Assembly: GCA_038232935.1 (NCBI GenBank)
Contig: JBBSMX010000001.1
Location: forward strand, 9,585-73,584
Source: Rhodothermales bacterium
GTDB lineage: Bacteria > Bacteroidota > Rhodothermia > Rhodothermales > JANQRZ01
DNA: 64,000 bases
Reading direction: 5' to 3'
Below the pieces are notes generated by a model. The model did no database searches. It saw only the letters and a program-made list of their open reading frames with translations, and was not told where the DNA came from. Numbering within the stretch: position 1 is the first letter of the stretch; each line of letters begins with the position of its first letter. Made by a program: the position numbers and the translations under genes. Below are positions 3,336-64,000 of this stretch, one piece after another.

Positions 3336-3339
3336 CGGC

Positions 3340-44263: not shown

Positions 44264-44470
44264 ATGAAATACCGTGTACTGATCGAACCCGACGAGGACG
44301 GCGTGTTCGTCGCCACCGTCCCCTCCCTGCCTGGCTGCGTCGCCGACGGCTCGACGCGCGACGAGGCCTTGCGTAACGTGAAAGATGCGATTGCGCTCTA
44401 TATCGAGAGTTTGGAGGAGCATGGCGATCCGATCCCGCCTCCGATCACCGAGGAAATGGTCGAGGTGTAG
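44264..44470 (+). CDS. hicB: HicB-family antitoxin
   Basis: MKYRVLIEPDEDGVFVATVPSLPGCVADGSTRDEALRNVKDAI.. is the classic HicB N-domain. Confidence 0.85.
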   Translation: MKYRVLIEPDEDGVFVATVPSLPGCVADGSTRDEALRNVKDAIALYIESLEEHGDPIPPPITEEMVEV

Positions 44471-44472
44471 GC

Positions 44473-44691: not shown

Positions 44692-44705
44692 ATTTTAGAT
44701 TCTAC

Positions 44706-48000: not shown

Positions 48001-48924
48001 GTGCTGCGCCTTCTCGCAGGACTCCTGCTGATCCCGCTCGCGACCGGCGGTTGCGGCAACGGAGATACGCCCGGCGCTTCCACTCCGCCTGCTCGCGTTG
48101 CGTCCGCCCAGCCGGCATCGCCGTACCGCTTCGACGCGTCCGATGCCCGGTTCGAGTTGCCGGGCCGGCTCGACGAAATCTCCGGCCTGACCGTGCTCGA
48201 CGACGGGCTGCTCGGCGCGGTGCAGGACGAGAAGGGGCACCTCTACGTTCTTGACGCCGCGACAGGTGAGGTGGTCGCCGAACACGACTTCGGCAAGAAT
48301 GGGGACTACGAAGGTGTCGAGCGCGTCGGCGACCGCGTGGTCGTGCTCCGCAGCGATGGGCACCTCTTCGTGATTGACGACTGGCATCAGGAAAAGTCGG
48401 ACGCGACGGAGATCAAAACGGGGCTGCATGGTTCGTGCGACGCCGAAGGGCTCGGCTACGACGCTGAGAATGACCGCCTGCTGATCGCCTGCAAAGAGGG
48501 GCCGGGCCGGGGCTACCGGGGCAGCCGCGCGGTCTACGCTTTTAGTCTCGCAACCAACGCGCTCGACCCGACCCCCGCGTTCACGATCCACGCCGACTCC
48601 GTCGCACACAGCGGCGACCGCACGATCAACGCGACGGTGCGCGCGCTCGTGCGGCCGATCACCGACATCAACACCTTCAAGCCCTCCGCACTCGCGGTCC
48701 ACCCGCGGACCGGCGAGGTGTGGGTGCTCTCGTCCGTTCGTAAGCTATTGCTCACGCTGGACCGAGCCGGGAGGGTCACCGCCGTGTGGCCGCTGCCGGA
48801 CCGGCTGCTTCGCCAGCCCGAGGCCCTCGCGTTTCTGCCCGACGGCACCCTCCTCATCGCCAGCGAGGCGGCTGGCGGCAAGGCCATCCTCCTCCGCTTC
48901 GACTACCGACCGAATGGTTTGTGA
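48001..48924 (+). CDS. SdiA-regulated/YjiK-like beta-propeller lipoprotein
   Basis: Lipobox LATGGC, LDEISGLTV, and repeated beta-propeller-like blades. Family recalled from memory. Confidence 0.65.
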   Translation: MLRLLAGLLLIPLATGGCGNGDTPGASTPPARVASAQPASPYRFDASDARFELPGRLDEISGLTVLDDGLLGAVQDEKGHLYVLDAATGEVVAEHDFGKNGDYEGVERVGDRVVVLRSDGHLFVIDDWHQEKSDATEIKTGLHGSCDAEGLGYDAENDRLLIACKEGPGRGYRGSRAVYAFSLATNALDPTPAFTIHADSVAHSGDRTINATVRALVRPITDINTFKPSALAVHPRTGEVWVLSSVRKLLLTLDRAGRVTAVWPLPDRLLRQPEALAFLPDGTLLIASEAAGGKAILLRFDYRPNGL

Positions 48925-49047: not shown

Positions 49048-52000
49048 ATGATCCACCGCTCCACCCTCCCGGTCGTCGGGTTGCTCTCGCTCGTCCTCAC
49101 GCTGGGTGCCTGTGCCTCCTCCCGCACGTTCGTAGACGAGCCGTTCCGGGACTGGAAGGCCGAGGCGCCGCCCGAGCGGGCCGACCTCGCCTTCCGCGTC
49201 TTCCTGATCGGAGACGTAGCGCCGCACGGTGACGAGAGGAGCGCGGCCCTCGACGCGCTGAAGGCGCAGCTCGCCGACGCAAGCGAGAACAGCGCCGTCA
49301 TCTTCCTAGGCGATCAGCTCGACCGCCCCATGCCGGATTCGCTCGCGGCCGGCCGCGCCGAGGCCGAAGCGGCGTTGCTGCGGCTCGTCGAAGTGGTCGA
49401 GGGCTATCCGGGGCGCGTGATCGTGATCCCCGGCGACCGGGACAGGGACGACGCCGAGGCCCTCGAACGGCAGGCGGACTTCCTCACGGCCCGCCTCGGC
49501 GACGACGTGTTTCTCCTCCCGGACGGGCTGCCCGGCCCCGTCGATCTCAAGCTGGACGACCACCTCGTCCTGATCGCCCTCGACACCGAGTGGTGGCTCC
49601 GCGATGCGGACGACCGGCCAACGGGCGAGGTGAACGGGGACGACGTCGAGTCCGAACTCGACGTGATAGTCGAACTGGCGGAACTGCTTGCGGAGTACGA
49701 CGACGAGCGCGTCCTCATGGTCGGGCACCACCCGGTCTTCGCAAACGGCGAGCGCGGCGGGCACTACAGCCTCCGCCAGCACCTCTTTCCGCTGACCGAT
49801 CTGTGGCGGCCCCTCTACGTCCCGCTGCCCGTCGTGGGCTCGGTCTATCCGCTCCTCCGCAGCTATTTCGGCGGTCGGGAGGATTTCTCGAATGGGGACT
49901 ACCGCGAACTCCGCGAGGCGCTCCCCCGCGTGATCGAGAAGCACGACGGCGTCATCTACGCGGCCGCGCACGAGCACGGGCTCCAGTACGTCCCGCTCCG
50001 CTCCGATGCGCTCGCGCTTCAGCATTTCATCGTGAGCGGGGGCGGCGCGCAGGCGGGGCCGATGGCCGGCGGCTTCGGCGCGGGCTTCGCGCACGGGGCG
50101 ACGGGCTTCGCCTCGCTTCAGTTCTACGAGGACGGGGAGATGTGGCTGGAGTTCTGGGAGCCTGAGGCCGCACAGCCGCAGGGCCGCCTCGCCTTCCGCA
50201 CCCAGCTCGAAGAGCCGCGCCGCGAGGACGTGGACCCCGACGTGCCCGAGATCGACCCCACTACGCTGCCCGATTACACGGACAGCACCCGCGTCGTCCG
50301 TGCCGATCCGCGCCTCGCGGCCGGACCCATCAAGCGCTTCTTCTTCGGCGATAACTACCGCGACGTATGGGCTGCCCCCGTCGGCCTGCCCGTCCTCGAC
50401 CTCGGCCGTGCACGGGGCGGGCTGACGCCGCTCAAGCGCGGCGGCGGGTACCAGACGACCTCGCTCCGGTTGGGGAATCCCGAGGAGCGCGAGTTCGTCC
50501 TCCGGCAGGTCCGCAAGAGCCCTGACCTTCTCTTGCCGCCCGCGCTCCAGAACACCTTCGCTGCCGACGTATTCGCCGATCAGCTCTCGTCCTCAAACCC
50601 GTACGCTGCGCTCGTCGTCCCGCGCCTCGCCGAGGCCGCCGGCATCTACCACACGAACCCCGAGCTCGTCGTGGTGCCCGACGATCCCCGCCTCGGAGTC
50701 TACCGCGAGACCTTCGCGGGCACGGTCGTCCTCTTCGAGGAGCGGCCGGCCAGCGATGCGTCCGGCCAGACCAACTTCGGCGGGGCCGAGGACGTGGACT
50801 CGTCGGTCAAGATGTTCGAGGAGATGCGGGAGGACAACGACACCCGCGTGGACCAGCCGTTCTACCTCCGCAACCGGCTCTTCGACCTGCTCATCGGTGA
50901 CTGGGACCGGCACGAAGACCAATGGCGCTGGGCGCAGTTCGAGCCCTTCGAGCTCGACTCGACGCTCACGGGCGAGGCCCGGAAGCAGGGCAAGGTCTAC
51001 CGGCCGATCCCCCGCGACCGCGATCAGGCGTTCTTCCGCATCACGGGACTGCTGCCGCGCATCGCTCAGCTTTTCGTGCCCGGCCTCCAGGACTTCGACC
51101 CGGACTACGGCAACCTCATCGGGCTCACCGACAACGGGCTCTTCCAGGACCGCCGCCTGCTCAACGAGCTGACGCGAGACGAGTGGCAGGCCATCGCCCG
51201 CGACCTGCAAGCCCGGATGACCGACGACGTCTTCCGCGAAGCGCTCCGCGACTGGCCGCCCGAGGTCAATGCGCTCCACGGCGAGCGGGTCTTCCGCACG
51301 CTCCAGAGCCGCCGCGACAAACTGCTGGAGGTCGCCGACGAGTTCTACGAGCTGCTGGCCAGCGTCGTGGATATCGTTGGGTCGGACAAGCACGAGCGGT
51401 TCGTGGTGAACCGGCGGAGCGATGACGAGACCGAGGTGACGGTCTACAAAACGAACAAAGAGGGCGAGAACCGGCAGGTGCTCTACCACCGCGTCTTCCT
51501 CGCCGACGAGACGAAGGAGCTCCGGCTGTTCGGGCTCGGCGGGCGCGACCGCTTCGTGTTCGAGGGCGAGTCCGGCCGGGGGCCGTACGTCCGCGCCATC
51601 GGCGGTCCGGGGGAAGACGAGTTCGAAGGCGACGGGCGAGCGAGCCGCCGCGTGCATTTTTATGACACCGAACGCGGCAACGAAGTCGAGCGCGGCCGGG
51701 CGCGCGTCACGCTCTCGGACGACCCCGCCAACAACAGCTACGACCGCGAAGACTTCGCCTACCCGTCGTACCTCATCTTCCCGTTCGTCGGCTACAACGC
51801 GACCGACGGCGCATTCCTCGGCGCGAGCGTCGAGTTCATCACGCCGAAGTTTCGGCGGGAGCCGTACGGGCGCTCGCACCTCCTCGCGGCGAATGTCTCC
51901 ACGTCCACGTTCGCGGTCAACGTGCTCTACCGCGGCCGGTGGGTCGAGGCGCTGGGGCCGTTCGACACCTTCGTCGAGGCGACGGGCGCTACGCCGCAGG

Positions 52001-52791
52001 ACGTCCGCAACTTCTACGGACTGGGCAACGAGACGACGGTGGACCGCGATACCGATTTCTACCGCGTCCGGCAGGCAAAGGCGGCGGCGGCGGTCGGGCT
52101 GGCGCTGAGCTACGCGTCAGGCGTCGAGATCGGCCTCGCGCCTGCGGCGCAGGTGACGAAGGTGGAACGGGGAGAGGACCGCGTACTCGGCGGGCTTCCC
52201 GCCGAGGCCGAGCTGTTCGACTACCAGTGGTTTGCCGGCGGCGACGGGCTCCTGCTGCTCCACCACGAGGACCGGCCGGGGAACCCGCTACAGGGGTTCC
52301 GCTGGGAGAACCGCGCGGGCATCCTGACGGGCGTCGGCGGCACGGGCGACACGTTCGCTCCCCTCACCTCGGCCCTCTCGGTCTACCTCTCGCCCAGCCT
52401 CGACCCGCAGATCACGCTCGCGCTCCGCGTCGGGGCGAGCCACATCGCCGGGGACTTCCCGTTCTACGAGGCCGCCACGCTCGGTGGCGTCGAGAACCTG
52501 CGGGGCTACCGGAGCACGCGGTTCTCCGGCCGCTCGGCCCTCTATCAGAATGCCGAACTACGCCTCGGGCTGCTCGACTTCCGGACGTACGTGGCGGGGG
52601 GAACACTCGGCGTGCTCGGCTTTGTGGACAACGGGCGCGTCTGGGCCGACGGCCAGGCCTCGAAGGAGTGGCACCAGGGCTACGGCGGCGGGCTCTGGGT
52701 AAACCTGTTCGACCTCATCCTCCTGCGCGGGACCGTCGGGGCGTCCAAAGAAGGTACCTTGGTGAACGTCGGTCTCGGCTTCCTCTACTGA
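49048..52791 (+). CDS. large outer-membrane protein: N-terminal calcineurin-like metallophosphoesterase + C-terminal Omp85/BamA-type barrel
   Basis: Signal peptide. VIFLGDQLD, VIPGDRD, VGHHPVF and AAHEHGLQY (MPE motifs). Central GDWDRHEDQWRWAQF. The C-terminus ..LRGYRSTRFSG.. ..GYGGGLWVNL.. ..VGLGFLY is barrel-like. Confidence 0.8.
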   Translation: MIHRSTLPVVGLLSLVLTLGACASSRTFVDEPFRDWKAEAPPERADLAFRVFLIGDVAPHGDERSAALDALKAQLADASENSAVIFLGDQLDRPMPDSLAAGRAEAEAALLRLVEVVEGYPGRVIVIPGDRDRDDAEALERQADFLTARLGDDVFLLPDGLPGPVDLKLDDHLVLIALDTEWWLRDADDRPTGEVNGDDVESELDVIVELAELLAEYDDERVLMVGHHPVFANGERGGHYSLRQHLFPLTDLWRPLYVPLPVVGSVYPLLRSYFGGREDFSNGDYRELREALPRVIEKHDGVIYAAAHEHGLQYVPLRSDALALQHFIVSGGGAQAGPMAGGFGAGFAHGATGFASLQFYEDGEMWLEFWEPEAAQPQGRLAFRTQLEEPRREDVDPDVPEIDPTTLPDYTDSTRVVRADPRLAAGPIKRFFFGDNYRDVWAAPVGLPVLDLGRARGGLTPLKRGGGYQTTSLRLGNPEEREFVLRQVRKSPDLLLPPALQNTFAADVFADQLSSSNPYAALVVPRLAEAAGIYHTNPELVVVPDDPRLGVYRETFAGTVVLFEERPASDASGQTNFGGAEDVDSSVKMFEEMREDNDTRVDQPFYLRNRLFDLLIGDWDRHEDQWRWAQFEPFELDSTLTGEARKQGKVYRPIPRDRDQAFFRITGLLPRIAQLFVPGLQDFDPDYGNLIGLTDNGLFQDRRLLNELTRDEWQAIARDLQARMTDDVFREALRDWPPEVNALHGERVFRTLQSRRDKLLEVADEFYELLASVVDIVGSDKHERFVVNRRSDDETEVTVYKTNKEGENRQVLYHRVFLADETKELRLFGLGGRDRFVFEGESGRGPYVRAIGGPGEDEFEGDGRASRRVHFYDTERGNEVERGRARVTLSDDPANNSYDREDFAYPSYLIFPFVGYNATDGAFLGASVEFITPKFRREPYGRSHLLAANVSTSTFAVNVLYRGRWVEALGPFDTFVEATGATPQDVRNFYGLGNETTVDRDTDFYRVRQAKAAAAVGLALSYASGVEIGLAPAAQVTKVERGEDRVLGGLPAEAELFDYQWFAGGDGLLLLHHEDRPGNPLQGFRWENRAGILTGVGGTGDTFAPLTSALSVYLSPSLDPQITLALRVGASHIAGDFPFYEAATLGGVENLRGYRSTRFSGRSALYQNAELRLGLLDFRTYVAGGTLGVLGFVDNGRVWADGQASKEWHQGYGGGLWVNLFDLILLRGTVGASKEGTLVNVGLGFLY

Positions 52792-52870: not shown

Positions 52871-53677
52871 ATGCAGCCTGAAGAATCTCATCTCTCCGGA
52901 TCGGAGCCAGTCGAAACGGCCGAGCCCGACCCTATCGGGGACCTTCCCGAACCCGAAGTGCTGGAGTCAGCAGACGTGGAGGCCGTCGCCGAAGCCGCGG
53001 CCGTAGCGGTCGAAGAGGCCCGTGCCGAGCGGAAGGCTGAGAAAAAGAAGAAAAAGAAGGCCAAGAAGGAGAAAAAGAAAGACTCTCTCGGCACGAGCCG
53101 GGGTGTCGAGACCATGTTCCGGACCTCGTACCGCGTCCACATGGACCTCACCTCGCTCGCCGACACGAAGGCCAACATCATGATCTCCATCAACGGCCTG
53201 ATCCTCCCGATTCTCCTCGGGGCCATCTCGCCGAAGATCGACTCGAATCCGTGGCTGCTCATCCCCACATCGGTGCTCATGATCGGGTGCCTCATCTCGA
53301 TGGTCTTTGCCATCCGGGCGGCTCGGCCTCGCGTCAGCGATGATCCGATCACGCTCGATCAGGTGCGGAAGAACACCGCGAACATCCTCTTCTTCGGCCA
53401 CTACGCCAACATGAGGCGGGAAGACTTCGAGACGGGAATGACCGAGCTGATGGTCGACAACGATCGGCTCTACCGGAACATGATCCGCGACCTCTACGGG
53501 CTCGGCAGCGTGCTGACGGCGAAGTTCAAGCTCCTCCGGACCTCGTACACGGTCTTCATGTTCAGCGTTGTGATAGGGGTGCTCCTGTTCATCGGGACGT
53601 ACTACCTCATCGCCACGGATGTGATCGATTCGGAGCCGACGCCCGTCGTCAACATGGTTCCTAGCCCGCAGCCCTGA
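52871..53677 (+). CDS. DUF5706 / 'Pycsar effector'-like three-TM membrane protein with acidic + poly-Lys N-terminal region
   Basis: ..ETMFRTSYRVHMDLTSLADTKANIMISINGLILPILLGAI.. ..LLIPTSVLMIGCLISMVFAIRA.. ..ILFFGHY.. ..VFMFSVVIGVLLFIG.. The family assignment is from memory. N-terminus contains KAEKKKKKKAKKEKKKD. Confidence 0.65.
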   Translation: MQPEESHLSGSEPVETAEPDPIGDLPEPEVLESADVEAVAEAAAVAVEEARAERKAEKKKKKKAKKEKKKDSLGTSRGVETMFRTSYRVHMDLTSLADTKANIMISINGLILPILLGAISPKIDSNPWLLIPTSVLMIGCLISMVFAIRAARPRVSDDPITLDQVRKNTANILFFGHYANMRREDFETGMTELMVDNDRLYRNMIRDLYGLGSVLTAKFKLLRTSYTVFMFSVVIGVLLFIGTYYLIATDVIDSEPTPVVNMVPSPQP

Positions 53678-54558
53678 TGCGCGTCACCTTCTGGGGAGTC
53701 CGAGGGTCCACGCCCGCGCCGGGCGCAGCGTTCGCGCGCTACGGCGGGCACACGACCTGCGTCTCGGTGGCGGTGGGCGACCGGGTGCTCGTGCTCGACG
53801 CCGGCACCGGCATCCGCCCACTCGGCCGCTCGCTCGTCGGGCTCGACGAAGACCTCTTCGTGCTGCTGACGCACCTCCACGCCGACCACGTCATTGGCTT
53901 CCCGTTCTTCGCCCCGCTCTACGAGCCTGGCCGGACGGTCCACCTGCTCGATTACCGCGAGGCCGGCGTCGCGTGGTCGCCCCTCGCGCTCTTCGACGGC
54001 ATCCACTACCCGCTGCACCCCGGCGACCTCCCGTGCTCGGTGCTCCGCGTCGGCGGCGACCCCATGTCGTACCTGAACGAGCACGGCATCGAGCTGGCGC
54101 GGCAGGCGGTCAACCATCCCGGTGGGGCCTACGGCTACCGCATCACGCACGAAGGACAGACGTTCGTGTTCATACCGGACAACGAGCTGGACCCGCCCGA
54201 GCGGGAGGTCGCCCACAAGGAGATCGTCGCGTTCTGCCGGGGGGCGGACGTGCTCTGCCACGACGCGCAGTACCTCGGGGCCGAGGTCGCCGAGCGGCGT
54301 GGGTGGGGGCACAGCAGCATCGAGCAGGCGATGGACCTGGCCGTGGAGGCGGGGGCGCGGAACGTCGTCCTGTTCCACCACGACCCTGACCGGACCGATC
54401 TCCAGCTCGACGAGATTCACGCAGACACGTGTGCGCGACTCGCGGTGCATGAGATCGGATGTATGGTCGCCTTCGAGGGGCTGACGTTCGACTTCGGCGG
54501 CGGCGACGTGGTGCTGCCGCCGCCCATGCCGATGTCCATGAAAGCAGAGAGCGCATGA
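53677..54558 (+). CDS. MBL-fold metallo-hydrolase (candidate cyclic-nucleotide phosphodiesterase)
   Basis: MRVTFWGVRGSTP.. LLTHLHADHVIGFPFF (HxHxDH), ..HDPD.. TGATG overlap with the upstream gene and ATGA overlap with the downstream gene. Confidence 0.75.
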   Translation: MRVTFWGVRGSTPAPGAAFARYGGHTTCVSVAVGDRVLVLDAGTGIRPLGRSLVGLDEDLFVLLTHLHADHVIGFPFFAPLYEPGRTVHLLDYREAGVAWSPLALFDGIHYPLHPGDLPCSVLRVGGDPMSYLNEHGIELARQAVNHPGGAYGYRITHEGQTFVFIPDNELDPPEREVAHKEIVAFCRGADVLCHDAQYLGAEVAERRGWGHSSIEQAMDLAVEAGARNVVLFHHDPDRTDLQLDEIHADTCARLAVHEIGCMVAFEGLTFDFGGGDVVLPPPMPMSMKAESA

Positions 54559-56024
54559 CCGACGCATCGATCCTGGGAAATGGAGCGAGCGTGCCTGAGG
54601 AGAACGGGCCGTCTGGCAAGAAGCACGCCGAGGCGATCATTCTCGTCGTCGACGACGAGTCGGACCTGGCCTCGCTCATCCGGCAGAAATTCCGCCGCCG
54701 CATCCGGCAAGGTGAACTCGCGTTCCTCTTCGCTGGTGACGGGCAGGAGGCCCTCGATCAGATCCGTTCGCACCCCCATGTGGACCTCGTGCTGACGGAC
54801 ATCAACATGCCTCGGATGGACGGGCTGACCCTGCTGGCCGAACTGACACGGCTCGGCGGGGGAGAGGGCCAGCCCGGTGCCGTCGTCGTGACCGCCTACG
54901 GCGACATGATGAACATCCGCACGGCGATGAACCGGGGCGCGTTCGACTTCCTCACCAAGCCCATCGATCTCGACGACCTCGAAGTCACCGTAGATAAGGC
55001 GCTGGAACGAGTGCGGGAGCAGAAGCAAGCGGCCCACGCCCGCGAGACGGTCGGGCGCTACCTCTCGGACGAGGTGGCCGAGGCCCTCCTCGTCGGGCCG
55101 GAAGCGACCGAGCTCGGCGGCGAGCGGCGGTGCGTGACCATCCTGATGTCCGACCTCCGCGGCTTCTCCGCCCTCAGCGAGCGGCTCGACCCCGAGAACG
55201 TCGTGGACGTGCTCAACATCCATCTCGGCGTGATGGGCGACGTTATCGCCGAATACGGCGGGACGATCGACGAGTACATCGGCGACGGCATCCTCGTGTT
55301 GTTCGGGGCTCCGGTGGCGTGCGATGACCACGCGCGCCGGGCCGTCGCCTGCGCCGTGGCGATGCAGCTTGCGATGGAGCAGGTGAACGAGCGCGTCGCG
55401 GCCATCGGGCTGCCGCGCCTCCAGATGGGCATCGGCATCAACACCGGGGACGTGGTGGTTGGCAACATCGGCTCGGAGAGGCGGATGAAGTACGGGGTCG
55501 TGGGGAGCCCGGTGAACGAGGCGGGGCGGATCGAGTCGGCCACGGTGGGCGGGCAGATCCTGATCTCCGAGTCGACGCTGACCGAGGCCGGGCCGGACGT
55601 GCAGATCCGCCGCGCGATGAAGCTGGGCGCGAAGGGGTTCGCCGAGCCGATCCCGCTCTTCGAGGTGGAAGGCGTCGGCGGGTCGTACGGGCTCGGCCTG
55701 CCTGCGGAGTCGCGCGTGCATCATTCGTTGCCGCGTCCGCTCCCCATCCGGTTCTACGTCCTCGATGGGAAGCACTTCGGTACCGAAGCCGTCGACGCGG
55801 ATTTCGTCGCGCTCTCCGAGACCGGCGGCGTGCTCCGTACGGACCACACGCTCGAACCGTTCACGGACCTCAAGCTGCACGTGCCGCTGCCGAAGGCCGA
55901 GAAACCGGGGTACGCGTACGCGAAGGTGTTGGAGACCTCCGACAAGGGGTACGCGGTGCACTTTACCGCGATGGCGGACGAGGTAGGTGAGGTGCTCCGG
56001 GCCCACGTCGACCAAGCCGCGTAA
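54555..56024 (+). CDS. response-regulator receiver + class III nucleotidyl cyclase + C-terminal PilZ-like beta-barrel (tentative)
   Basis: REC: IILVVDDES, LVLTDINMPRMDG, FLTKP. Cyclase: VTILMSDLRGFSAL, TIDEYIGDGILVLFGAP, GNIGSERRMKYGVVGSPVNEAGRIES. ATG at 54555. Confidence 0.85.
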   Translation: MTDASILGNGASVPEENGPSGKKHAEAIILVVDDESDLASLIRQKFRRRIRQGELAFLFAGDGQEALDQIRSHPHVDLVLTDINMPRMDGLTLLAELTRLGGGEGQPGAVVVTAYGDMMNIRTAMNRGAFDFLTKPIDLDDLEVTVDKALERVREQKQAAHARETVGRYLSDEVAEALLVGPEATELGGERRCVTILMSDLRGFSALSERLDPENVVDVLNIHLGVMGDVIAEYGGTIDEYIGDGILVLFGAPVACDDHARRAVACAVAMQLAMEQVNERVAAIGLPRLQMGIGINTGDVVVGNIGSERRMKYGVVGSPVNEAGRIESATVGGQILISESTLTEAGPDVQIRRAMKLGAKGFAEPIPLFEVEGVGGSYGLGLPAESRVHHSLPRPLPIRFYVLDGKHFGTEAVDADFVALSETGGVLRTDHTLEPFTDLKLHVPLPKAEKPGYAYAKVLETSDKGYAVHFTAMADEVGEVLRAHVDQAA

Positions 56025-56129
56025 ATGCCTGCGGTCGTAGGTTGCGGAGGCCCGTTGCAAGCGTTCGCTGCCGGTCAACGGCGCTCGAACTGATAGTCTA
56101 GCATCCACCCATTCACCGCCACGCTGCCG

Positions 56130-57128
56130 ATGGACCCACTCCTGCTCGTGTTCCGCATCGCCGTCCTCGGGCTCGCCGGCTACCTCTGGTGGTCGAGCCG
56201 GCGGCTGGCGGGGGAGAACGCGCGGTTGCGGGCGGAGGCGGAAGAAGCGGCGGCGGTGCAGCGGGAGCAGGAGGCGGCGCTCGAGGCCGCGCGGGAGGGC
56301 CTCCGGGTCAAAGAGGATCAGATCGTCCGGGCGCGCCACCTCGCTTCCCTCGGCCAGCTCATCGGCGGCATCGCCCACGAGATCAAGAACCCGCTCAACT
56401 TCGTCAACAACTTCGCCCGGCTCTCGGTGGAGCTCGCGGACGAGCTGAAGGAGACGCTGGAAGAGCACCGCGACGCGCCCGTGAGCGAGGTGCTGGATGA
56501 GGTGCAGGACCTGCTCGATGACATCGCCCACAACGCTGCGAAGATCGCCGAGCACGGCGAGCGGGCCGATGGGACGGTCCGCAGCATGCTGATGCACGCG
56601 CGTCCGAACGCCAACCAGCGCCAGCCGACGGACCTCAACAAGCTCCTCGCCGAATACGCGAACCTCGCCTATCACGGCATGCGCGCCTCCGATCCCCAGT
56701 TCAACGTGACGATCGAGCAGGACCTCGATCCGGCCGTGGGCGAGGTGCCGGTCGTGCCGCACAACCTCGGCCGCGTGTTCATCAACCTGTTCAACAACGC
56801 CTTCTACGCCGTCACTGAGAAGGCGGGCACCGACCCCTCGTTCGCACCGACGGTCTCGCTGAAAACGGAGGCACGCGATGGTGAGGTGGAGATCCGCGTG
56901 GCGGACAACGGGACGGGGATCCCAGCGGAAGCCCGCGTTCAAGTCTTCGAGCCGTTCTTCACGACCAAGCCGGCCGGCGCAGGAACCGGCCTCGGCCTCT
57001 CGCTCTCATACGAGATCGTCACGAAGGGACACGGCGGGACGATGGAGGTCGAGTCGCGAGAGGGGGAGGGCACCGTGTTCGTCATCACGATTCCGAGAGC
57101 GCTCCCGGAGGCGGGCGGCCATGAATAG
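56130..57128 (+). CDS. sensor histidine kinase (one N-terminal TM, coiled coil, HisKA, HATPase)
   Basis: H-box GGIAHEIKNPLN, N-box INLFNNAFYA, G-boxes DNGTGI and GTGLGLS. Confidence 0.9.
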   Translation: MDPLLLVFRIAVLGLAGYLWWSSRRLAGENARLRAEAEEAAAVQREQEAALEAAREGLRVKEDQIVRARHLASLGQLIGGIAHEIKNPLNFVNNFARLSVELADELKETLEEHRDAPVSEVLDEVQDLLDDIAHNAAKIAEHGERADGTVRSMLMHARPNANQRQPTDLNKLLAEYANLAYHGMRASDPQFNVTIEQDLDPAVGEVPVVPHNLGRVFINLFNNAFYAVTEKAGTDPSFAPTVSLKTEARDGEVEIRVADNGTGIPAEARVQVFEPFFTTKPAGAGTGLGLSLSYEIVTKGHGGTMEVESREGEGTVFVITIPRALPEAGGHE

Positions 57129-57681
57129 TCTGTGGGCCAACATTTTCCGGCCGAAACCAGTCGCCGGGACGAAAGAGCTGCTGCGTAATGTCCCCATGTT
57201 CGCCGGGCTGGACCGGCGCGAGCTGGCGGAGCTGGAGAAGATCCTCTACCGCCGTCAGTACCGCACCGACGAGGTGATCTTCCGGCAGGCGGATCCGGGC
57301 GTCGGGATGTACGTGATCGAGTACGGCACCGTCGTCATCCTCCACGAGCCCACGGGCCGCCGGATGGCGGAGTTGCAGGGCGGCGAGTCCTTCGGCGAGA
57401 TCGCCCTCTTGAATGAGACCCCGCGCTCGGCGCGCGCGACGGCCACCTCGCCGACGGTCCTCTACGGGCTGTTCCAACCCGAGCTGTTCGACCTCGTACA
57501 GCGCGCGCCTCGGTTGGGCGTGAAGCTGCTACTGCCGCTCGCTCAGAACCTCGGCGCGCGGCTCGTCCACGCGGACGACGAGCTTCAGCGCCTGCACGAG
57601 CGCGTAGAGACGGTTGCCTCAGCGACATCCGACCCAGATACGGCGGGCGAAGACCCGGACTCCGATGCCGCGATGGGCTAA
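57121..57681 (+). CDS. stand-alone cyclic-nucleotide-binding domain protein (no HTH)
   Basis: ..VPMFAGLDRRELAELE.. ..GESFGEIALLNETPRSARATA.. ATG 57121 overlaps the kinase stop by 8 nt. Confidence 0.85.
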   Translation: MNSLWANIFRPKPVAGTKELLRNVPMFAGLDRRELAELEKILYRRQYRTDEVIFRQADPGVGMYVIEYGTVVILHEPTGRRMAELQGGESFGEIALLNETPRSARATATSPTVLYGLFQPELFDLVQRAPRLGVKLLLPLAQNLGARLVHADDELQRLHERVETVASATSDPDTAGEDPDSDAAMG

Positions 57682-58687
57682 ACTCCTGCTGATCGCGCTG
57701 GCGGTGGTGGCCGCAGGCTGGCTGCTCGCGCCCGTCGGCGGCGTCGTGCAATTGATCGTGCTCGGGGCGCTGCTGGCGTATCTGCTGGACCCCCTCGTGG
57801 TCTGGCTGGAGGCACGCGGGATCAGCCGCGGGTGGGCGTCGGCGTCGGTCTTCGTCGGGTTGTTCGTCGTCATCGGGGTGCCGCTCATACTGCTGTTCCC
57901 GTCGCTGGCGGCGCAGATCAGTTCGCTCCAGGAAGGGATCGACCTGGAGGCAGCGTCCGACGTGATGGAGGAGGTGGAGCAGTGGCTCGGCGGCCGGCTG
58001 GCCCCGCTGGGCATCCCGCAGCCGGACCTGCGCGGGCGGATGGGGGAGTTCGCCTCGGAGCACCTCGCCGATGTGGTCGGCTTCGTGCCGGGCGTGCTGG
58101 GGCTCCTGACGCAGGTCATCGTCGTCCCGGTGATCGCGTTCTTCGTGCTCAAAGATGGGCGGCGCTTCCGGCGGCGCTTCATTAGCGCGGTCCCGAATCG
58201 CTACTTCGAGTTCTCCCTCAACGCCTTGCGCAAGGCCGACGCGCAGCTCGGCGGCTACCTGCGCGGCCAGCTCCTCGCCGCCCTCATCGTCGGGCTTCTG
58301 GCGACGTTTGCGCTCTGGCTGATCGGCGTAGACTACTACTTCCTCCTCGGCGCGGTGGCGGGGCTGGCGAACCTGATCCCGTTCCTCGGCCCGCTCATCG
58401 GCGGCGTCGTCGCCGTCGCCGCCTCCGTCACGACGACGGGGGCGTTGGATCAGGTGCTCCCCATCGTCGTCGCGTTCTCCATCATTCAACTCATCGACAA
58501 TCTCGGCTCGCAGCCCCTCCTGCTGTCGCGGAACGTGGAATTGCACCCGCTCGTGATCCTGCTCGTCCTGCTGGCGGCGAGCGAGGCGCTCGGGCTGATC
58601 GGCCTGCTGCTGGCCGTCCCCGCCGCCGCCGTGCTGAAAGTGCTCGTACAGGAGTTCGTGACGACGTTCCGCAGCTACCAGTTTTAG
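57665..58687 (+). CDS. AI-2E/PerM-family transporter
   Basis: 8-TM profile, with ..FFVLKDGRRF.. and ..LIPFLGPLIGG.. motifs. The ATG overlaps the upstream gene by 17 nt. Confidence 0.8.
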   Translation: MPRWAKLLLIALAVVAAGWLLAPVGGVVQLIVLGALLAYLLDPLVVWLEARGISRGWASASVFVGLFVVIGVPLILLFPSLAAQISSLQEGIDLEAASDVMEEVEQWLGGRLAPLGIPQPDLRGRMGEFASEHLADVVGFVPGVLGLLTQVIVVPVIAFFVLKDGRRFRRRFISAVPNRYFEFSLNALRKADAQLGGYLRGQLLAALIVGLLATFALWLIGVDYYFLLGAVAGLANLIPFLGPLIGGVVAVAASVTTTGALDQVLPIVVAFSIIQLIDNLGSQPLLLSRNVELHPLVILLVLLAASEALGLIGLLLAVPAAAVLKVLVQEFVTTFRSYQF

Positions 58688-58737
58688 CGAGTGGCCATTC
58701 GTCGAAGGACGAGTGACAACGGACAACCATCTTCCCC

Positions 58738-59229
58738 ATGAAAACCATCCTCCTCCTCCGTCACGGCAAATCCGACTGGGACGCCGATTTCGGCCACGAC
58801 CACGACCGGCCCCTCGCCAAGCGCGGCCGGAAGGCGGCCAAGACGATGGGGAAATTCCTCGTCGCGAGTGGCACCCTCCCGGACCGCATCGTGACCTCGA
58901 CGGCCAAACGGGCGCGGACGACGCTGGAGCTCGCGTGCAAGGCCGGCGGGCTGACGGCACCGGTGCGCGAAGCACGCGAACTTTACGGGGCCGGCCCTAC
59001 CGATCTTCTCCGCGAAATCCACGCGGCGGACGACGCGGCAGACGTGCTGCTCCTCGTCGGCCACCAGCCGGGGTGGGGCGAGACGGTCAGCCGGCTCATC
59101 GGGGGCGGGGCCGTTCAGTTCCCGACGGCCGCGCTCGCGCGCGTGGATGTGGACGTGCAGCAATGGCGGGACGTGGCGTTCGGGCGGGGCGAGCTGGTCT
59201 GGCTCGTCCCGCCGAAAGCGCTGGGCTGA
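58738..59229 (+). CDS. sixA: SixA-type phosphohistidine phosphatase (histidine phosphatase superfamily)
   Basis: MKTILLLRHGKSDW (RHG motif), ..LVGHQPGWGE.. Confidence 0.8.
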   Translation: MKTILLLRHGKSDWDADFGHDHDRPLAKRGRKAAKTMGKFLVASGTLPDRIVTSTAKRARTTLELACKAGGLTAPVREARELYGAGPTDLLREIHAADDAADVLLLVGHQPGWGETVSRLIGGGAVQFPTAALARVDVDVQQWRDVAFGRGELVWLVPPKALG

Positions 59230-59259
59230 GCCACCGACCACTCAGCCGGGAGTCGATGG

Positions 59260-59292
59260 GGGGGTCGAGCGGAAACGCCCCGCTCGACCCCC
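59260..59292. terminator. 13-bp GC-rich hairpin between convergent sixA and the protease gene
   Basis: GGGGGTCGAGCGG-AAACGCC-CCGCTCGACCCCC. No clear T-tract. Confidence 0.45.
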
Positions 59293-59326
59293 ACATGCTA
59301 ACTCAGGCATGCGCAGGACGTTCGGC

Positions 59327-61486
59327 TCACCGGAGCAGCGTTACACGCTGCGTCTGTGTGAAGGCCCGCTTGTTGCCCGCAGCTTCTACACGCACGACGT
59401 ACACCCCGCTCGGCAACCGCGCGCCGTCAAACGCTACCTCGTGCTCACCCGCTGCATAGGCTCCTTCAGCTAGGCGGACGACCTCACGCCCGAGTACGTC
59501 GTAGACGCCTATACGCACGTCAGCGGTCTCGGGCAGCAACAGCGTCAGCGTCGTCGCGGCGTGGAACGGGTTCGGGCGGGCCGCCTGCAACGCGTAGGCA
59601 GCCGGTACCCCCGGCGTCTCTTCACCCGCTACCGGCTCGCTCGGCCGCCCGTTGCAACTGGCCCCGCACGGCTTCGCCAGGATCGTGTAAGCGAAAGCTG
59701 CATTGGCGGCGGTAGTCGGGTAGTAGCCGTAGTACGTCTGCCCATCGCTGCTCCAGACCTCGTAGACGTAGGTCCTCAGCGTCACGTTCGGAGAGGAGTT
59801 CGAGACCACGTCCGTGAAAGAGAGGCCGTAGGTGTACGGCACGGATTGGTTGGGCGGGTCGTCCTGACCCCAGCCCTGGTTAGCCGGGATGCCGGAGCCA
59901 CCGCCCCGCCCCCAGATGTAGGGCGTCCCGTCGAAGAAACCGACGTTGACCGTCCGCCGGACCTCGCGGCGCTTGACGCGGTAGAGCCCATCGACGAGGT
60001 TGTCGTTGGGGTTGTAGATGTAGAGGTCGTACTGGCCGGAGGTGCTGTAGACGCTCCCGCCGCCAGTGACGGAGGCGCGCGTGAGCTGCCACGGGCTCTC
60101 GAGGAAGGCCAGCGCCTTGTCCGCGTTGATGCGGCCCGTGCCGTACAGGTTGTCAAAGCCGGGATCGCCTTTGTCATCTGCTGAGAGGCGGATGATCTGC
60201 TCTACGTCGTCGGGGTAGTTCTGGAGGCTACCGCCGTAGGACATAAGCAGGGCCGCCAGGCCACTCGTCGCGGGCGTAGAGAACGAGGTGCCGTAGTTAT
60301 AGTCGTAGGTGTTGGTCGGGAACGTCGTGTAGATCCGGCCGTTGCCGCTGGTGGCACCGCCGGGCGCGGCCACGTCGATCCACGAGCCCGTACTCGAATA
60401 GCTCGCCCTCACGTCGAACTGGGTCGTGGCACCGACGGTGATGAACCCCTGGCCGTAGGCCGCCGGGTACTGGACGACGTTGCCTGACTGATTCCCCATC
60501 GAGACGGCGATGGAGCGGCCCAGGCGGTAGGCATCGGCGAACGCCTGACGGAGATCCACGGAATAGGTGCCCACCGGGACCAGCTTCCAGCTATTGTTGA
60601 GGACGTTCGCGCCCCGGTTGTAGGCGCTCTGAACGGCCGCGACGAAATCGGCAGCCGAGCCGTTGCCGTAGTCTTCGTTGATGATGCCCACACCCCAGGC
60701 GACGCCCGCGATGCCAGTGCCGTTGTTGCCTTTCGCCGCAGCGACACCGGCCACCGCCGTCCCGTGTGAGCAGTTGTTGGCGGCGTCCCCGCTCGCGCGC
60801 CCGGTAAAGTCGGTGTGGCTCGTCTGCATGCCGCAATCTATCACCCCGACCTTCACCCAGCTATCCCCGGTCTCGCGGTTCCAGGCCAGGTAGGTCTTCA
60901 TGTCGGCACCGGGCGTACCGCTTCCTTGCAGCACCGTGCCGTCGTTCTTGTGCATCCACTGGCGGCCGAACTCCGTGTCGTTCGGGGTGAGGAGCACCTC
61001 GATCAGCGCCTGTTCCTCTCGGACGGGGGCGTAGCTCACGATGTCGTCGGGCTCGCCGCGCACGTTGGGATGGGCGTAGACGACGTCCGGCCGCGCCCGT
61101 AGCAGGGCAAGGAACGCCGCGCGCGACGTGGTGCTCCCGCTGCGCTGGGTGAGGACGTAGACGTCGGTCCAGTCGGTGAGCCCCACCGTTTCGCCGGTGC
61201 CGAGTGTAGCGAAGCGGTCTTCGGGATCGAAGCCCGGAATGATCTGCCGCATCGTCTCGACCTGCGCGTCGAGGAGTAATTGGAGGAGTGCGGGTGTGCT
61301 GAAGACGTAGGTTTCCGGCGAGGCCGGTGCCCCGTCTGTGGCGCTGCCCAGGACGGTGCCCGGCGTGAAGCGGACGATGACCTCGCGGTCGATGACAGAG
61401 GACTGTGCCTGAGCAGGCAGGGCGGAGGCCAAGCCGAGGAGCGCGCAGAGCAGCAATCTCCGGCGCGGGAGCTGTAGCGAGTTCAT
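59327..61486 (-). CDS. S8 (subtilisin-family) serine peptidase with T9SS-type C-terminal sorting domain
   Basis: Signal peptide MNSLQLPRRRLLLCALLGLASALPAQA. Triad contexts VGVIDCGM, HGTAVAGV and GTSFSTPATSG. C-terminus ..VRIGVYDVLGREVVRLAEG..LPSGVYVVRVEAAG.. Confidence 0.9.
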   Translation of the reverse strand: MNSLQLPRRRLLLCALLGLASALPAQAQSSVIDREVIVRFTPGTVLGSATDGAPASPETYVFSTPALLQLLLDAQVETMRQIIPGFDPEDRFATLGTGETVGLTDWTDVYVLTQRSGSTTSRAAFLALLRARPDVVYAHPNVRGEPDDIVSYAPVREEQALIEVLLTPNDTEFGRQWMHKNDGTVLQGSGTPGADMKTYLAWNRETGDSWVKVGVIDCGMQTSHTDFTGRASGDAANNCSHGTAVAGVAAAKGNNGTGIAGVAWGVGIINEDYGNGSAADFVAAVQSAYNRGANVLNNSWKLVPVGTYSVDLRQAFADAYRLGRSIAVSMGNQSGNVVQYPAAYGQGFITVGATTQFDVRASYSSTGSWIDVAAPGGATSGNGRIYTTFPTNTYDYNYGTSFSTPATSGLAALLMSYGGSLQNYPDDVEQIIRLSADDKGDPGFDNLYGTGRINADKALAFLESPWQLTRASVTGGGSVYSTSGQYDLYIYNPNDNLVDGLYRVKRREVRRTVNVGFFDGTPYIWGRGGGSGIPANQGWGQDDPPNQSVPYTYGLSFTDVVSNSSPNVTLRTYVYEVWSSDGQTYYGYYPTTAANAAFAYTILAKPCGASCNGRPSEPVAGEETPGVPAAYALQAARPNPFHAATTLTLLLPETADVRIGVYDVLGREVVRLAEGAYAAGEHEVAFDGARLPSGVYVVRVEAAGNKRAFTQTQRVTLLR

Positions 61487-61697
61487 GGCGGTCGGGTGGG
61501 TTCGGTTTGCACCGAGGTGAGCGTATCTTGCGCCGAACACACGAGCGCCCGAAACGGGAGCGACTGTGCGGCGCGTGGCTTCGCGATCTGTGGAGGATCG
61601 AGCGGGGTATGGGGTCGGCAGCGCCCGAGCCGGGCGCTCGTCTTTTCAGGGGGCAGGCATAGTAGGATGGGGGGTTAGGTGGAGGAAGCCGCCGGGG

Positions 61698-62810
61698 TCA
61701 GCAGCCGCCGGGGCAACGGCCCCAGGCGGGGAAGTAGTCGCTGAGCTGCGTGAGGTCGGAGCCGTCGCGCGCCATCGTGTAGAGCTGGCCGCTCCACCGC
61801 TCCGGCACGTTCTGCGAGCGCACAAAAGCAATCGTATTGCTATTCGGGTTCCAAGTGAAGTATTCGAGTGCGTCATTGGGTTCAAGACGCTCCACATGGG
61901 ACCCTTCAAGCACATAGATAAAGCGGCCTTCTCCGGTATCTGGCAGTCCCCAGAACACAATGCGTTGGTCGTCCGAACTCAACTGGGGGCTGCGCAAGAA
62001 GGTGTCCCTGACCTGAGGTTCATTCAAGCAAGTGAGCCGGGTGTAGCTACTGGGATCGCTGACGGAGATCCGAGCCAAGTCTCCATAGAGGTTTAGATAG
62101 TCGATGTAGATGAGTGAATCGCCCGTAGCATTCCACTCAGGTTCAAATCCGGGTGCTACATACGCTTCCCCGCTCCCATCCGCCCCTATGACCCATAGAT
62201 CTCCGCTCGTGTTGATACGGTAGGAGGTGAACGCAATGCGCTGCCCGTCGGGGCTCCAGGCGGGAGCGAAGTTGGTATTCTCCGTCGTCAACTGCCGCAG
62301 CGTCGAGAGGTCTACGCGCGCCGAGTCGAGGTCGGCCACCTCCACCGTGTAGATCTGCGGCACGGCCAGGTCGCTCAGGGCCAGGTGCCGTCCGTCCGGG
62401 CTCCAGTCCGGCTCGGCGAAGTCCCCCTCCAGGAGCGGCCTCTTCCCTCCCGTCTCCGTGTCGAGCAGCCAGATTCCGTTGACGTAGCCGTCGTAGCGGC
62501 AGTCGGCGTCGGTATCTATGCTATCGGCGTGGACGGCGGCGAGGTAGCGGCCGTCGGGGTGCCAGGCCGGGTCGGTGAAGAACGGAGCCCAGATCGGGTC
62601 GTTGCAGCCCTCGGCTTCCTCACAGAGCCGGAACTCGACGGGGGGGAACTCGCACGCGGCGGGGGGCGGGTCCGGATCGGGCGGGTCCGGGGGATCGGGC
62701 GGGAAGGCATCGCAGCCGCCGAGCCAGAGGAGCGCCGCCGCGAGGACGGCGAGGGCGAGTGTGCCAAGCCAGAGGGTCGGGCTCGAGGCCCGTAGCGTCC
62801 GAGCAGTCAT
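61698..62810 (-). CDS. TolB-like PD40 beta-propeller lipoprotein (start uncertain)
   Basis: Lipobox LWLGGC, a Pro/Asp-rich linker, and repeats WHPDGRYLA, WSPDGRHLA and WSPDGQRIAF. Confidence 0.75.
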   Translation of the reverse strand: MTARTLRASSPTLWLGTLALAVLAAALLWLGGCDAFPPDPPDPPDPDPPPAACEFPPVEFRLCEEAEGCNDPIWAPFFTDPAWHPDGRYLAAVHADSIDTDADCRYDGYVNGIWLLDTETGGKRPLLEGDFAEPDWSPDGRHLALSDLAVPQIYTVEVADLDSARVDLSTLRQLTTENTNFAPAWSPDGQRIAFTSYRINTSGDLWVIGADGSGEAYVAPGFEPEWNATGDSLIYIDYLNLYGDLARISVSDPSSYTRLTCLNEPQVRDTFLRSPQLSSDDQRIVFWGLPDTGEGRFIYVLEGSHVERLEPNDALEYFTWNPNSNTIAFVRSQNVPERWSGQLYTMARDGSDLTQLSDYFPAWGRCPGGC

Positions 62811-63004
62811 GGTCAGAGCGGTTGAGTTCAAAACCGGCCTGACCACTCCTCACCTTACTGGACAGCCAACGTGTCGTGCCTACGCATGAATCCGTCAGGT
62901 CACCGCCTAGTTTAAAAAAAACATCACCGGAATGCAAGAGAGTGACTGAATCTCTTGGCTAAGAAACTGGCTCCGAAAGCTGACTTTCCAATTTAATAAC
63001 GTGG

Positions 63005-63436: not shown

Positions 63437-64000
63437 TCATCCCACCTCTAACGCCGCCTCGCGCGCGCGCTCCGGCGTCACGTCCAGCTCCATCCCCGGT
63501 GGGCACGGCGCGATGGGAATGCGGAGCGCGTGGAGGCCCTGGACCCCCGGCATCGGCTCGACGTCCATGGCCTCGATGCGCCCGTCGACGTAGCCGGCCG
63601 CACGCAGGTAATCGAGGTAGGTGCGGTACTCCTCCACGTCGCGGGTGTGGGAGAGCACGAGGGCGAGCGTGCCCGGCTGCGTGAGCCGCTCCTCCGTCCC
63701 GGCAATCGTCGCCTTGTCGATCCGCTTCTTGACGATCTCGTAGCGCGTGTTGTACGCCCCGTCCACGTCGAACTGCTTCTCGTCGTAGCGGAAGCGGATG
63801 GCGATCGGGCTGCTCTGGATGAGGATGAGGTGGGCTGTCTCCAGCGGCATCGGTAGGTCCGGTGCGATCCGGTCGAGCGCCCACGCGGTGCTGCACGTCG
63901 TCATGAGCTGCCAGAGGCGGAGGTTGCGGAGCGCGAGGGGGTCCACCTCCCCCTCTTCGAGAAGCGCGGCACCGGCGTATATGGTGTACTCGACGCCGTC
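63437..64000 (-). CDS. hypothetical protein, 3' part only (gene continues beyond the window end)
   Basis: The frame is open from 64000 down to the stop at 63437. ..FRYDEKQFDVDGAYNTRYEIVKKRIDKA.. I associate this with C-termini of some GAF-domain proteins, but am not sure. Confidence 0.5.
   Translation of the reverse strand, partial: DGVEYTIYAGAALLEEGEVDPLALRNLRLWQLMTTCSTAWALDRIAPDLPMPLETAHLILIQSSPIAIRFRYDEKQFDVDGAYNTRYEIVKKRIDKATIAGTEERLTQPGTLALVLSHTRDVEEYRTYLDYLRAAGYVDGRIEAMDVEPMPGVQGLHALRIPIAPCPPGMELDVTPERAREAALEVG

Follow-up and report, generated by a model that had tools for sequence, protein, structure and literature searches.

Gene pairs made up of a nucleotide cyclase and a membrane protein with three transmembrane (TM) segments, hereafter a 3TM protein, are already known from the Pycsar and Pucsar systems. 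In the Pycsar TM systems, described by Tal and colleagues in 2021, the cyclase is reportedly accompanied by a 3TM effector of the "pJV1-spdB3 family". The Pucsar systems use cyclases that make cyclic GMP (cGMP), paired with either CNBD-TIR or 3TM effectors, and act in anti-phage defence, the pairs of cGMP cyclase and 3TM effector being named "PucsarTM" (bioRxiv 10.64898/2026.08.12.744502). The same study describes EcPucTM as a hexameric pore of ca. 15 A with three TM helices and a helical cytosolic region between TM2 and TM3, associates the cyclase-AAA_16-TPR architecture with immunity, and finds faster evolution in the immune cyclase clades than in the physiological ones. Here, we describe a cluster of seven genes at positions 52871 to 59229 of a 64,000-nt stretch of a Rhodothermales genome (GCA_038232935.1, contig JBBSMX010000001.1, positions 9,585 to 73,584), in which a 3TM protein of the Pycsar effector family PF18967 is encoded together with a receiver-fused cyclase, a histidine kinase and a cyclic-nucleotide-binding (CNB) protein. 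The whole 64,000-nt stretch is referred to as the window. Reasoning from sequence and genomic context, as for every functional statement below, we give about an even chance to the reading that, at this locus, a conserved envelope cluster has had a physiological cGMP pathway grafted onto it, with the 3TM protein also being cGMP-responsive.

Dedicated guanylate cyclases encoded with a CNB-domain receptor are known from Rhodospirillum centenum (Gcy/CgrA) and Xanthomonas (XC_0250/XC_0249). Cyclase and CNB receptor are likewise encoded together in the window, but the receptors of the known systems have DNA-binding or GGDEF outputs while the CNB protein found here has no output domain, is co-translated with a kinase and a permease, and is accompanied by a PycTM-family protein. 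With the Pycsar and Pucsar TM systems, the locus shares a class III cyclase located near a PF18967 3TM gene and, with Pucsar, a messenger, since cGMP is the predicted product of the cyclase. It differs from them in that the cyclase is fused to a receiver (REC) domain, resembles Cya2 and evolves slowly, and in that a gene for a metallo-beta-lactamase (MBL) fold hydrolase separates it from the 3TM gene, in contrast to their compact cyclase-effector operon. The 3TM protein itself is conserved, syntenic and chromosomal and carries an acidic/poly-Lys N-terminal extension; whereas Pycsar and Pucsar are patchy and island-like, its gene is syntenic with that of a Metallophos-Omp85 protein in 49 of 81 related loci across phyla, without defence-island context. 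We know of no Pycsar system having Metallophos-Omp85, propeller, SixA-like or PPK1 partners. The seven genes of the cluster are the following.

52871-53677, + strand: 3TM protein, PycTM family PF18967 (Pfam, E = 1.3e-29, 103.2 bits against a cut-off of 27.2)
53677-54558, + strand: MBL-fold hydrolase with an HLHADH motif (Pfam Lactamase_B_2, 1.4e-15)
54555-56024, + strand: receiver fused to a class III cyclase, or REC-cyclase (Response_reg, 5.7e-23; Guanylate_cyc, 2.1e-25; PilZ, borderline with 22.9 bits against 22.5)
56130-57128, + strand: membrane-anchored histidine kinase (Pfam HisKA and HATPase_c)
57121-57681, + strand: stand-alone CNB protein (Pfam cNMP_binding alone, 7e-18)
57665-58687, + strand: AI-2E/PerM-family permease (Pfam AI-2E_transport, 2.1e-60; 8 hydrophobic segments)
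58738-59229, + strand: SixA-like protein of the histidine-phosphatase superfamily (His_Phos_1, 1.7e-12; TIGR00249, 59.7 bits against a cut-off of 74.5)

All seven open reading frames (ORFs) are present where a first-pass annotation, made from the letters of the window, had located them, and its domain calls, including that of PF18967/DUF5706 for the 3TM protein, were upheld by Pfam. The four overlaps that it listed are exact in the sequence (TGATG at 53675-53679, ATGA at 54555-54558, ATGAATAG at 57121-57128 and 17 nt at 57665-57681), and these stop/start overlaps bear out two translationally coupled blocks, one encoding the 3TM protein, the MBL enzyme and the cyclase and the other the kinase, the CNB protein and the permease, with a gap of 105 nt in between.

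The catalytic domain of the REC-cyclase aligns with that of the Synechocystis guanylate cyclase Cya2 (PDB 2W01) with 238 bits and 58% identity over ca. 200 aa, and the class III catalytic motifs SDLRGF, GDG and VN..R, with the metal-binding Asp and the transition-state Asn/Arg residues, are all apparent in the alignment. The Glu of "TIDEY" and the Gly of "KYGVVG" correspond to the base-specifying positions of Cya2, an enzyme that the E488K substitution turns into an adenylate cyclase (PMC5995499). In 13 orthologues this Glu is kept and the second position is either Gly or Ala. Based on the identity to Cya2 and on the conserved base-specifying residues, the protein is predicted to be a Cya2-type guanylate cyclase that would produce cGMP from GTP, and not a PycC. 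Its input nevertheless differs, being a receiver together with a PilZ-like C-terminal domain instead of the extracellular CHASE2 domain by which Cya2 is regulated (PMC5995499). The receiver has the residues DD/D/T/K (in VVDDESD, LVLTDINMP, VVVTAYG and FLTKP). The PilZ-like C-terminus, which had escaped the first-pass annotation, is degenerate: where the RxxxR and (D/N)xSxxG motifs are expected it has RPLPIR and ALSETG, which its orthologues do not conserve.

Full-length orthologues of the REC-cyclase, with 53-60% identity, are common in Rhodothermales. Three more distant members of the order (L086, L087 and L088; 8001-9416 and neighbours) carry it with a histidine kinase of ca. 650 aa having TPR repeats, a single-domain REC protein and a REC-SpoIIE (PP2C) protein; no 3TM, CNB or AI-2E gene was found beside it in these genomes, two of which carry a 3TM-MBL pair elsewhere. 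As a side observation, these three loci have the appearance of a conserved phosphorelay with several outputs, one of them a predicted cGMP branch.

The enzyme had initially been regarded as part of a Pycsar-type cyclase/effector pair, and PADLOC models of PycC do match its cyclase domain (E = 8e-28, 95.6 bits). These matches were rejected as a sign of a pyrimidine cyclase since any class III cyclase scores alike, the generic Pfam model giving 89.8 bits. Judged by its identity to Cya2 and by the context of its orthologues, the protein appears to fall outside the fast-evolving PycC/PucC immune clades. It is thus a physiological, receiver-controlled predicted guanylate cyclase that has been relocated, and not a PycC-type immune cyclase.

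For the 3TM protein, hydropathy delineates TM segments at residues 101-119, 130-148 and 229-247, with which the helices of an AlphaFold2 (AF2) model agree (all-helical, pLDDT 71.8), so that the initial call of a three-TM protein holds. The acidic and poly-Lys N-terminus reported with it is also found (16 D/E in residues 1-55, 14 K/R in 51-75) and is followed by a TM1-TM2 hairpin, a helical cytoplasmic segment of ca. 80 aa and TM3. The proposal that this N-terminus takes the place of a nucleotide-binding domain stands only in part: the extension exists, but the PADLOC PycTM model PDLC02364 aligns nearly over its full length (5.7e-21, model positions 17-154 of 160). Because the protein aligns to almost the whole of the PycTM models, it holds all that those effector models hold, plus the N-terminal extension. 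CBASS 2TM effector models of PADLOC match it as well. The Foldseek search of its model against the PDB returned no match at E <= 0.001, the best matches below significance being generic helical bundles, V-ATPase c subunits and BAR domains, and a profile search of PDB sequences gave spurious matches only.

Homologues of this protein number more than 2186. A pattern scan in which each species was represented by a single genome detected relatives in at least 504 of these genomes, belonging to Rhodothermales, Balneolales, Longimicrobiales/Gemmatimonadota, Ignavibacteria, Cytophagales, Chitinophagales and some Lysobacterales. Identity of the core across phyla is 45-65%, the poly-Lys tract followed by LGTSRGIETMFRTSYR is conserved among relatives and, according to tblastn against the fetched loci, sequence conservation of the 3TM protein equals or exceeds that of the neighbouring genes.

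PF18967 proteins are also encoded by 152 viral contigs of IMG/VR, with 27-37% identity to the 3TM protein; no closer relative was detected on viral contigs, and no PHROGs family fits either the 3TM protein or its phage homologues. In two such contigs (L137:5013-5735 and L100:4953-5621), the viral gene is located between those of an SBP_bac_3 protein and a class-3 lipase, and in the first it lies ca. 1.4 kb from a T4-type large terminase; there is no cyclase near it in either contig. The viral proteins may have a phage membrane or lysis role.

The HxHxDH motif and the remaining metal ligands of the MBL protein do not vary in our alignment (A5). When its AF2 model (pLDDT 90.4) was submitted to Foldseek, ELAC1/RNase Z and Bacillus subtilis YhfI were retrieved alike with E ca. 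4e-12, YhfI having the best TM-scores (TMt 0.72-0.77) with a sequence identity of 19-20%. YhfI is a class II phosphodiesterase preferring cAMP and cGMP, and the MBL fold and HxHxDH dinuclear site of the class II phosphodiesterases of cyclic mononucleotides (cNMP), including that of phage, Apyc1, are common with the protein of the window (PMC9117128). Structural modelling thus suggests an enzyme of the RNase Z / class II phosphodiesterase (YhfI-like) type and makes it a plausible candidate cGMP phosphodiesterase. The initial suggestion of a cNMP phosphodiesterase of the Apyc1 kind is therefore plausible for the activity, through the likeness to YhfI, but not for the family: the Apyc1 Pfam model (PF23023) reached 11.7 bits against a cut-off of 50, with only the HxHxDH region being aligned. 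NCBIfam scores were far below every cut-off for RNase Z, PhnP or cNMP phosphodiesterases (NF041851, 48.9 bits against 400). The family has more than 7800 matches, often annotated as PhnP-like.

The histidine kinase is composed of one TM segment at residues 1-19, a coiled coil and the DHp and CA domains, with an H-box reading HEIKNPL and the motifs NLFNNA, DNGTGI and GTGLGL; neither Pfam nor hydropathy found a periplasmic or cytoplasmic sensor domain. Kinase and REC-cyclase together have the residues that define a two-component system. Regarding the CNB protein, first recognized by FGEIALL...PRSA, its stand-alone nature was confirmed, cNMP_binding being the only Pfam domain. It ends in an acidic, low-complexity tail, its nearest relatives in the PDB are the CNB domains of PKA-R and PKG, and its gene overlaps that of the kinase by 8 nt and that of the AI-2E permease by 17 nt. 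A second CNB protein, fused to an Rce1-like (CPBP) membrane protease, was observed in a Rhodothermales relative (L089:18107-19345, - strand), ca. 3.6 kb downstream of the SixA-like gene. The last protein of the cluster had been described as SixA-type; it does have a His_Phos_1 domain and an RHG motif, but the score for TIGR00249 lies below the cut-off and the protein is therefore called SixA-like.

The conservation of the gene set was assessed by searching the proteins of the window by tblastn against 82 fetched loci and by clustering the ORFs of 81 related loci, which are mostly contigs of metagenome-assembled genomes (MAGs) from unevenly sampled lineages. The seven genes do not form a conserved unit, as had been supposed, the full order being restricted to five genomes: the window, three close Rhodothermales MAGs (L003, L004 and L006) and a further relative (L089). 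In these relatives gene order and tight packing are retained. The kinase, CNB and AI-2E genes occur with the 3TM gene in the window and the three close MAGs only, among the 81 loci, and in the separately fetched L089. The commonest neighbour of the 3TM gene is Metallophos-Omp85, whose full-length homologues (37-71% identity) occur in several phyla, followed by an SdiA-regulated/phytase-like propeller (33 of the 81 loci). Both are truly conserved upstream partners that the initial gene set had left out, and both are present in the window, where Metallophos-Omp85 is encoded just upstream of the 3TM protein.

48001-48924, + strand: lipoprotein beta-propeller, SdiA-regulated / phytase-like (Pfam SdiA-regulated, 1.8e-10; Phytase-like, 6e-06), with a lipobox signal peptide
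49048-52791, + strand: Metallophos-Omp85 lipoprotein of 1247 aa (Pfam; C-terminal Omp85 barrel, 5.6e-07; N-terminal Metallophos, 1.7e-04), with a lipobox

The layout of the latter recalls that of the patatin-Omp85 protein PlpD (type Vd secretion), in which an N-terminal hydrolase is joined to a C-terminal Omp85 barrel, but its passenger is a calcineurin-like phosphoesterase and the whole is a 1247-aa lipoprotein. To our knowledge, PlpD has no link to 3TM proteins or cyclases.

On the other side of the 3TM gene, a SixA-like gene follows directly and on the same strand in 25 of the 81 loci, with a median distance of +697 nt. This gene is an ancestral downstream neighbour of the 3TM gene, with which it goes, and not a component of the phosphorelay to which it had been assigned. 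The MBL gene adjoins the 3TM gene in 10 of the loci. In one of them (L037) the order is 3TM-MBL-SixA, for which the simplest history is that the REC-cyclase, kinase, CNB and AI-2E genes were inserted between MBL and SixA in the clade of the window. A PPK1 gene was found in 12 of the 81 loci, often together with the SixA-like gene, and in one (L023; PPK1 at 646-3563) it overlaps the 3TM gene by 4 nt; none was found in the window. These PPK1 links hint at a polyphosphate connection, to which the acidic/poly-Lys N-terminus of the 3TM protein may be relevant. In another locus (L002), PhoX and GDPD genes lie near the 3TM gene. An apparent fusion of MBL, REC and cyclase (P0266, L089:9001-10926) was rejected as a Rosetta-stone fusion; it is probably a frameshift artefact because the same contig also has a split propeller gene and encodes the PilZ part in an ORF of its own.

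A same-strand cyclase gene lies within 3 kb of the 3TM gene in 19 of the 82 loci; a further 7 have one within 10 kb. Five cyclase architectures adjoin orthologous 3TM genes, namely REC-GC-PilZ-like, as in the window, REC-cyclase, cyclase-FlgO-TPR, ZnR-cyclase-AAA_16-TPR and direct cyclase-3TM fusions. The second is exemplified by L023, in which PPK1 and 3TM are followed by a REC-cyclase different from that of the window. The third is a 651-aa protein encoded directly upstream of the 3TM gene in Balneolaceae and also found in the clusters of loci from Longimicrobiales, Gemmatimonadota and Ignavibacteria. The fourth was found in a Rhodothermales MAG (L076:790-4050) as a 1086-aa Zn-ribbon-cyclase-AAA_16-TPR (STAND-like) protein encoded after an orthologous 3TM gene. 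In-frame cyclase-3TM fusions occur in three MAGs (L075, L079 and L082). The functional link between cyclase and 3TM protein that had been put forward is plausible in view of these five adjacent architectures and of the fusions.

An exhaustive phmmer search with the 3TM protein yielded 1696 clusters at 50% identity, and further fusions were found among the 142 nearest representatives. The most frequent, with 59 of 142, are HD-3TM proteins of ca. 400 aa with an N-terminal HD phosphohydrolase domain (including P0378, P0380, P0388 and P0405), of which a few have weak PDEase_I or Ppx-GppA_III matches and one (P0380) lies among housekeeping genes. Their frequency suggests that proteins of the 3TM family generally have a phosphohydrolase partner. 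Another five are 3TM-propeller fusions (DUF3616/Phytase-like), one is a PPK1-3TM fusion of 901 aa (P0377) and one a cyclase-3TM fusion (P0373). Cytoplasmic enzymes are always N-terminal in these proteins and the propeller always C-terminal, orientations that fit an N-in, three-TM, C-out topology and mirror the gene neighbourhood.

The physiological cGMP pathway that we propose would be made up of three layers. The first would be an old, vertically inherited envelope set comprising the propeller lipoprotein, the outer-membrane lipoprotein Metallophos-Omp85, the 3TM protein of the inner membrane (N-in, C-out) and the SixA-like phosphatase; to this, the class-II-phosphodiesterase-like MBL gene would have been added directly after the 3TM gene in Rhodothermales, and a cGMP two-component cassette would then have come to lie between the MBL and SixA genes in the clade of the window only. 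In such a pathway the membrane kinase, which lacks a sensor domain, would phosphorylate the receiver of the REC-cyclase, which would thereby be activated and make cGMP. The stand-alone CNB protein would read this cGMP and, as the kinase and the AI-2E permease are co-translated with it, it probably modulates either of them or the two together. The 3TM protein, likely an oligomeric channel, would also respond to cGMP, by analogy with the cGMP-activated PucTM, and the MBL enzyme would hydrolyse cGMP and so reset the signal. The pathway is predicted to result in regulated changes of membrane transport or of envelope physiology, and not in cell suicide.

Several observations weigh against this pathway. 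About two thirds of the related 3TM loci have no nearby cyclase, which means that the 3TM protein may not need one, and the sample of loci is phylogenetically clustered, 12 Balneolaceae loci, for instance, probably representing one event. The base specificity of the cyclase is predicted from two residues, and such a prediction can be wrong; cGMP binding by the 3TM protein is proposed by analogy. The MBL protein is structurally as near to RNase Z as to YhfI, and members of its family also occur far from any 3TM or cyclase gene (L083 and L085), although the gene adjoins 3TM in L084. Finally, the two blocks of the cluster are separated by the 105-nt gap, and a consensus scan could call no promoter or terminator in this window of 68% GC.

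Among the alternatives, the one that survives best is that 3TM-MBL genes with an envelope or phosphate function, independent of cNMP, and a functionally unrelated cGMP cassette were brought into tight packing by chance in one clade. This seems to us rather unlikely, yet it deserves serious consideration: the full arrangement is confined to five genomes, orthologous REC-cyclases occur elsewhere without a 3TM gene, as most 3TM loci do without a cyclase, and the commonest partners, phosphoesterases, phosphatases and PPK1, point to phosphate or polyphosphate metabolism over cNMP signalling. The TGATG and ATGA overlaps, however, tie together the 3TM, MBL and REC-cyclase genes, their order and packing are kept in all four relatives, and chance hardly explains why five unrelated cyclase architectures have independently come to lie beside the same 3TM family, including as fusions (in the three MAGs and in P0373).

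On a broader and more speculative level, which we consider improbable although worth stating, the PF18967 3TM pore that Pycsar and Pucsar use as a suicide effector would have a sister branch, conserved and physiological in role, in Rhodothermota, Balneolota, Bacteroidota, Ignavibacteriota and Gemmatimonadota. This branch would provide a trans-envelope system with its channel through the inner membrane. On the inside it would be fed or gated by cyclases, HD/MBL phosphodiesterases and polyphosphate kinase, and on the outside it would be connected with the periplasmic propeller and the outer-membrane Metallophos-Omp85 protein, with cGMP two-component control in the clade of the window. Such a branch would either have given rise to the immune effector or descend from it by domestication.

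A distinct explanation, to which we assign little probability, is that the 3TM protein serves as the conduit through the inner membrane in a system handling phosphate, polyphosphate or nucleotides across the envelope, with PPK1, cyclase and HD enzymes on its cytoplasmic N-terminal side and the propeller and Metallophos-Omp85 on the other, cGMP merely tuning it in this clade. The PPK1-3TM, HD-3TM and cyclase-3TM fusions and the C-terminal propeller fusions agree with the N-in/C-out topology that this implies, PPK1 and PhoX and GDPD genes occur in the neighbourhoods described above, the propeller and the Omp85 protein both have lipoprotein signal peptides, and a PucTM relative forms a hexamer with a pore of ca. 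15 A (bioRxiv 10.64898/2026.08.12.744502). It is nonetheless an argument of guilt by association alone, in which no tool indicates a transport substrate, and both the lack of a PPK1 gene in the window and the lack of a significant match between the 3TM model and any solved channel speak against it.

The surroundings of the cluster bear on the last alternative. Housekeeping genes flank it in the window (arginase, amidohydrolase, FabH and GNAT) and also surround the 3TM loci of relatives, and no flanking defence gene was found in the window, whose sole mobile-looking element is a HicAB pair located ca. 8 kb upstream. The remaining features are as follows.

44264-44470: HicB-like antitoxin (Pfam, 7e-13)
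44473-44691: HicA toxin (Pfam, 1.2e-15)
44706-45326: orphan ORF of 206 aa after HicAB, in a patch of 44-46% GC as compared with ca. 68% for the genome
59260-59292, no strand assigned: 13-bp GC-rich hairpin (RNA fold of 59228-59325, -47.5 kcal/mol, z = -3.46, 0/200 shuffles as stable)
59327-61540, - strand: S8 subtilase with FlgD_ig and a sorting tail of the type IX secretion system (T9SS)
61698-62846, - strand: PD40/TolB-like protein
63512-64000, match reaching the end of the window: GAF-containing gene of ca. 800 aa

The hairpin closes the cluster, between the convergent SixA-like and S8 peptidase genes, and is likely a bidirectional terminator; Rfam and tRNA scans of the window gave no matches. 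In the relative L089 (14596-16980), the GAF gene comes directly after the SixA-like gene, so that the peptidase pair of the window (59327-62846) looks like a local insertion. HicAB and the orphan ORF (44264-45326) look like a small acquired islet.

A signal-gated abortive-infection device, in which a Pucsar/Pycsar-type cyclase and a 3TM pore would be under two-component control with the MBL enzyme clearing the signal, is unlikely: the 3TM protein is a bona fide PF18967 member fitting the PycTM and CBASS 2TM models, the cyclase matches PycC models, cGMP cyclase and 3TM pairs do defend against phage and the architecture found after the 3TM gene of L076 is one associated with immunity (bioRxiv 10.64898/2026.08.12.744502), but the PycC score is no better than that of the generic Pfam model, the cyclase is close to the physiological Cya2 and has conserved orthologues in ordinary two-component loci all over Rhodothermales, the 3TM gene is syntenic in housekeeping surroundings in at least 504 species across phyla, the slow evolution seen here is the opposite of that of immune cyclase clades, and HicAB is all that looks mobile nearby. 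Of the two roles offered by the first-pass annotation, the abortive-infection-like one is thus opposed by this wide, syntenic and slowly evolving conservation and by the housekeeping flanks, and the other, a novel housekeeping cNMP pathway, fits the data.

The same annotation held the arrangement to be undescribed. This does not apply to the pairing of a cGMP cyclase with a 3TM protein, known as PucsarTM, but no description was found of a non-defence branch or of two-component control. Literature searches returned nothing under DUF5706, defence papers only for PycTM, c-di-GMP literature only for REC-guanylate cyclases, and nothing on a conserved envelope cluster of Metallophos-Omp85, propeller, 3TM, SixA-like and PPK1 proteins. 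Three elements therefore appear to be undescribed in the literature searched: the slowly evolving 3TM branch tied to Metallophos-Omp85, propeller, SixA-like, PPK1, HD/MBL hydrolases and assorted cyclases; the version of the cyclase-3TM pair that has a two-component, Cya2-like guanylate cyclase; and the conserved envelope cluster itself.

If the physiological reading is true, PF18967 matches would not be reliable markers of phage defence in these phyla, while NCBI annotation already spreads them as "Pycsar system effector family protein". The widespread receiver-controlled, Cya2-like predicted guanylate cyclases would join the few known bacterial cGMP pathways, and attention would be drawn to an unstudied envelope cluster comprising Metallophos-Omp85, the phytase-like propeller, the 3TM protein, the SixA-like protein and PPK1. 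The locus would then represent a physiological counterpart of the cyclase-3TM pair, and could show how a pore effector of immunity was taken over from normal membrane physiology or domesticated into it.

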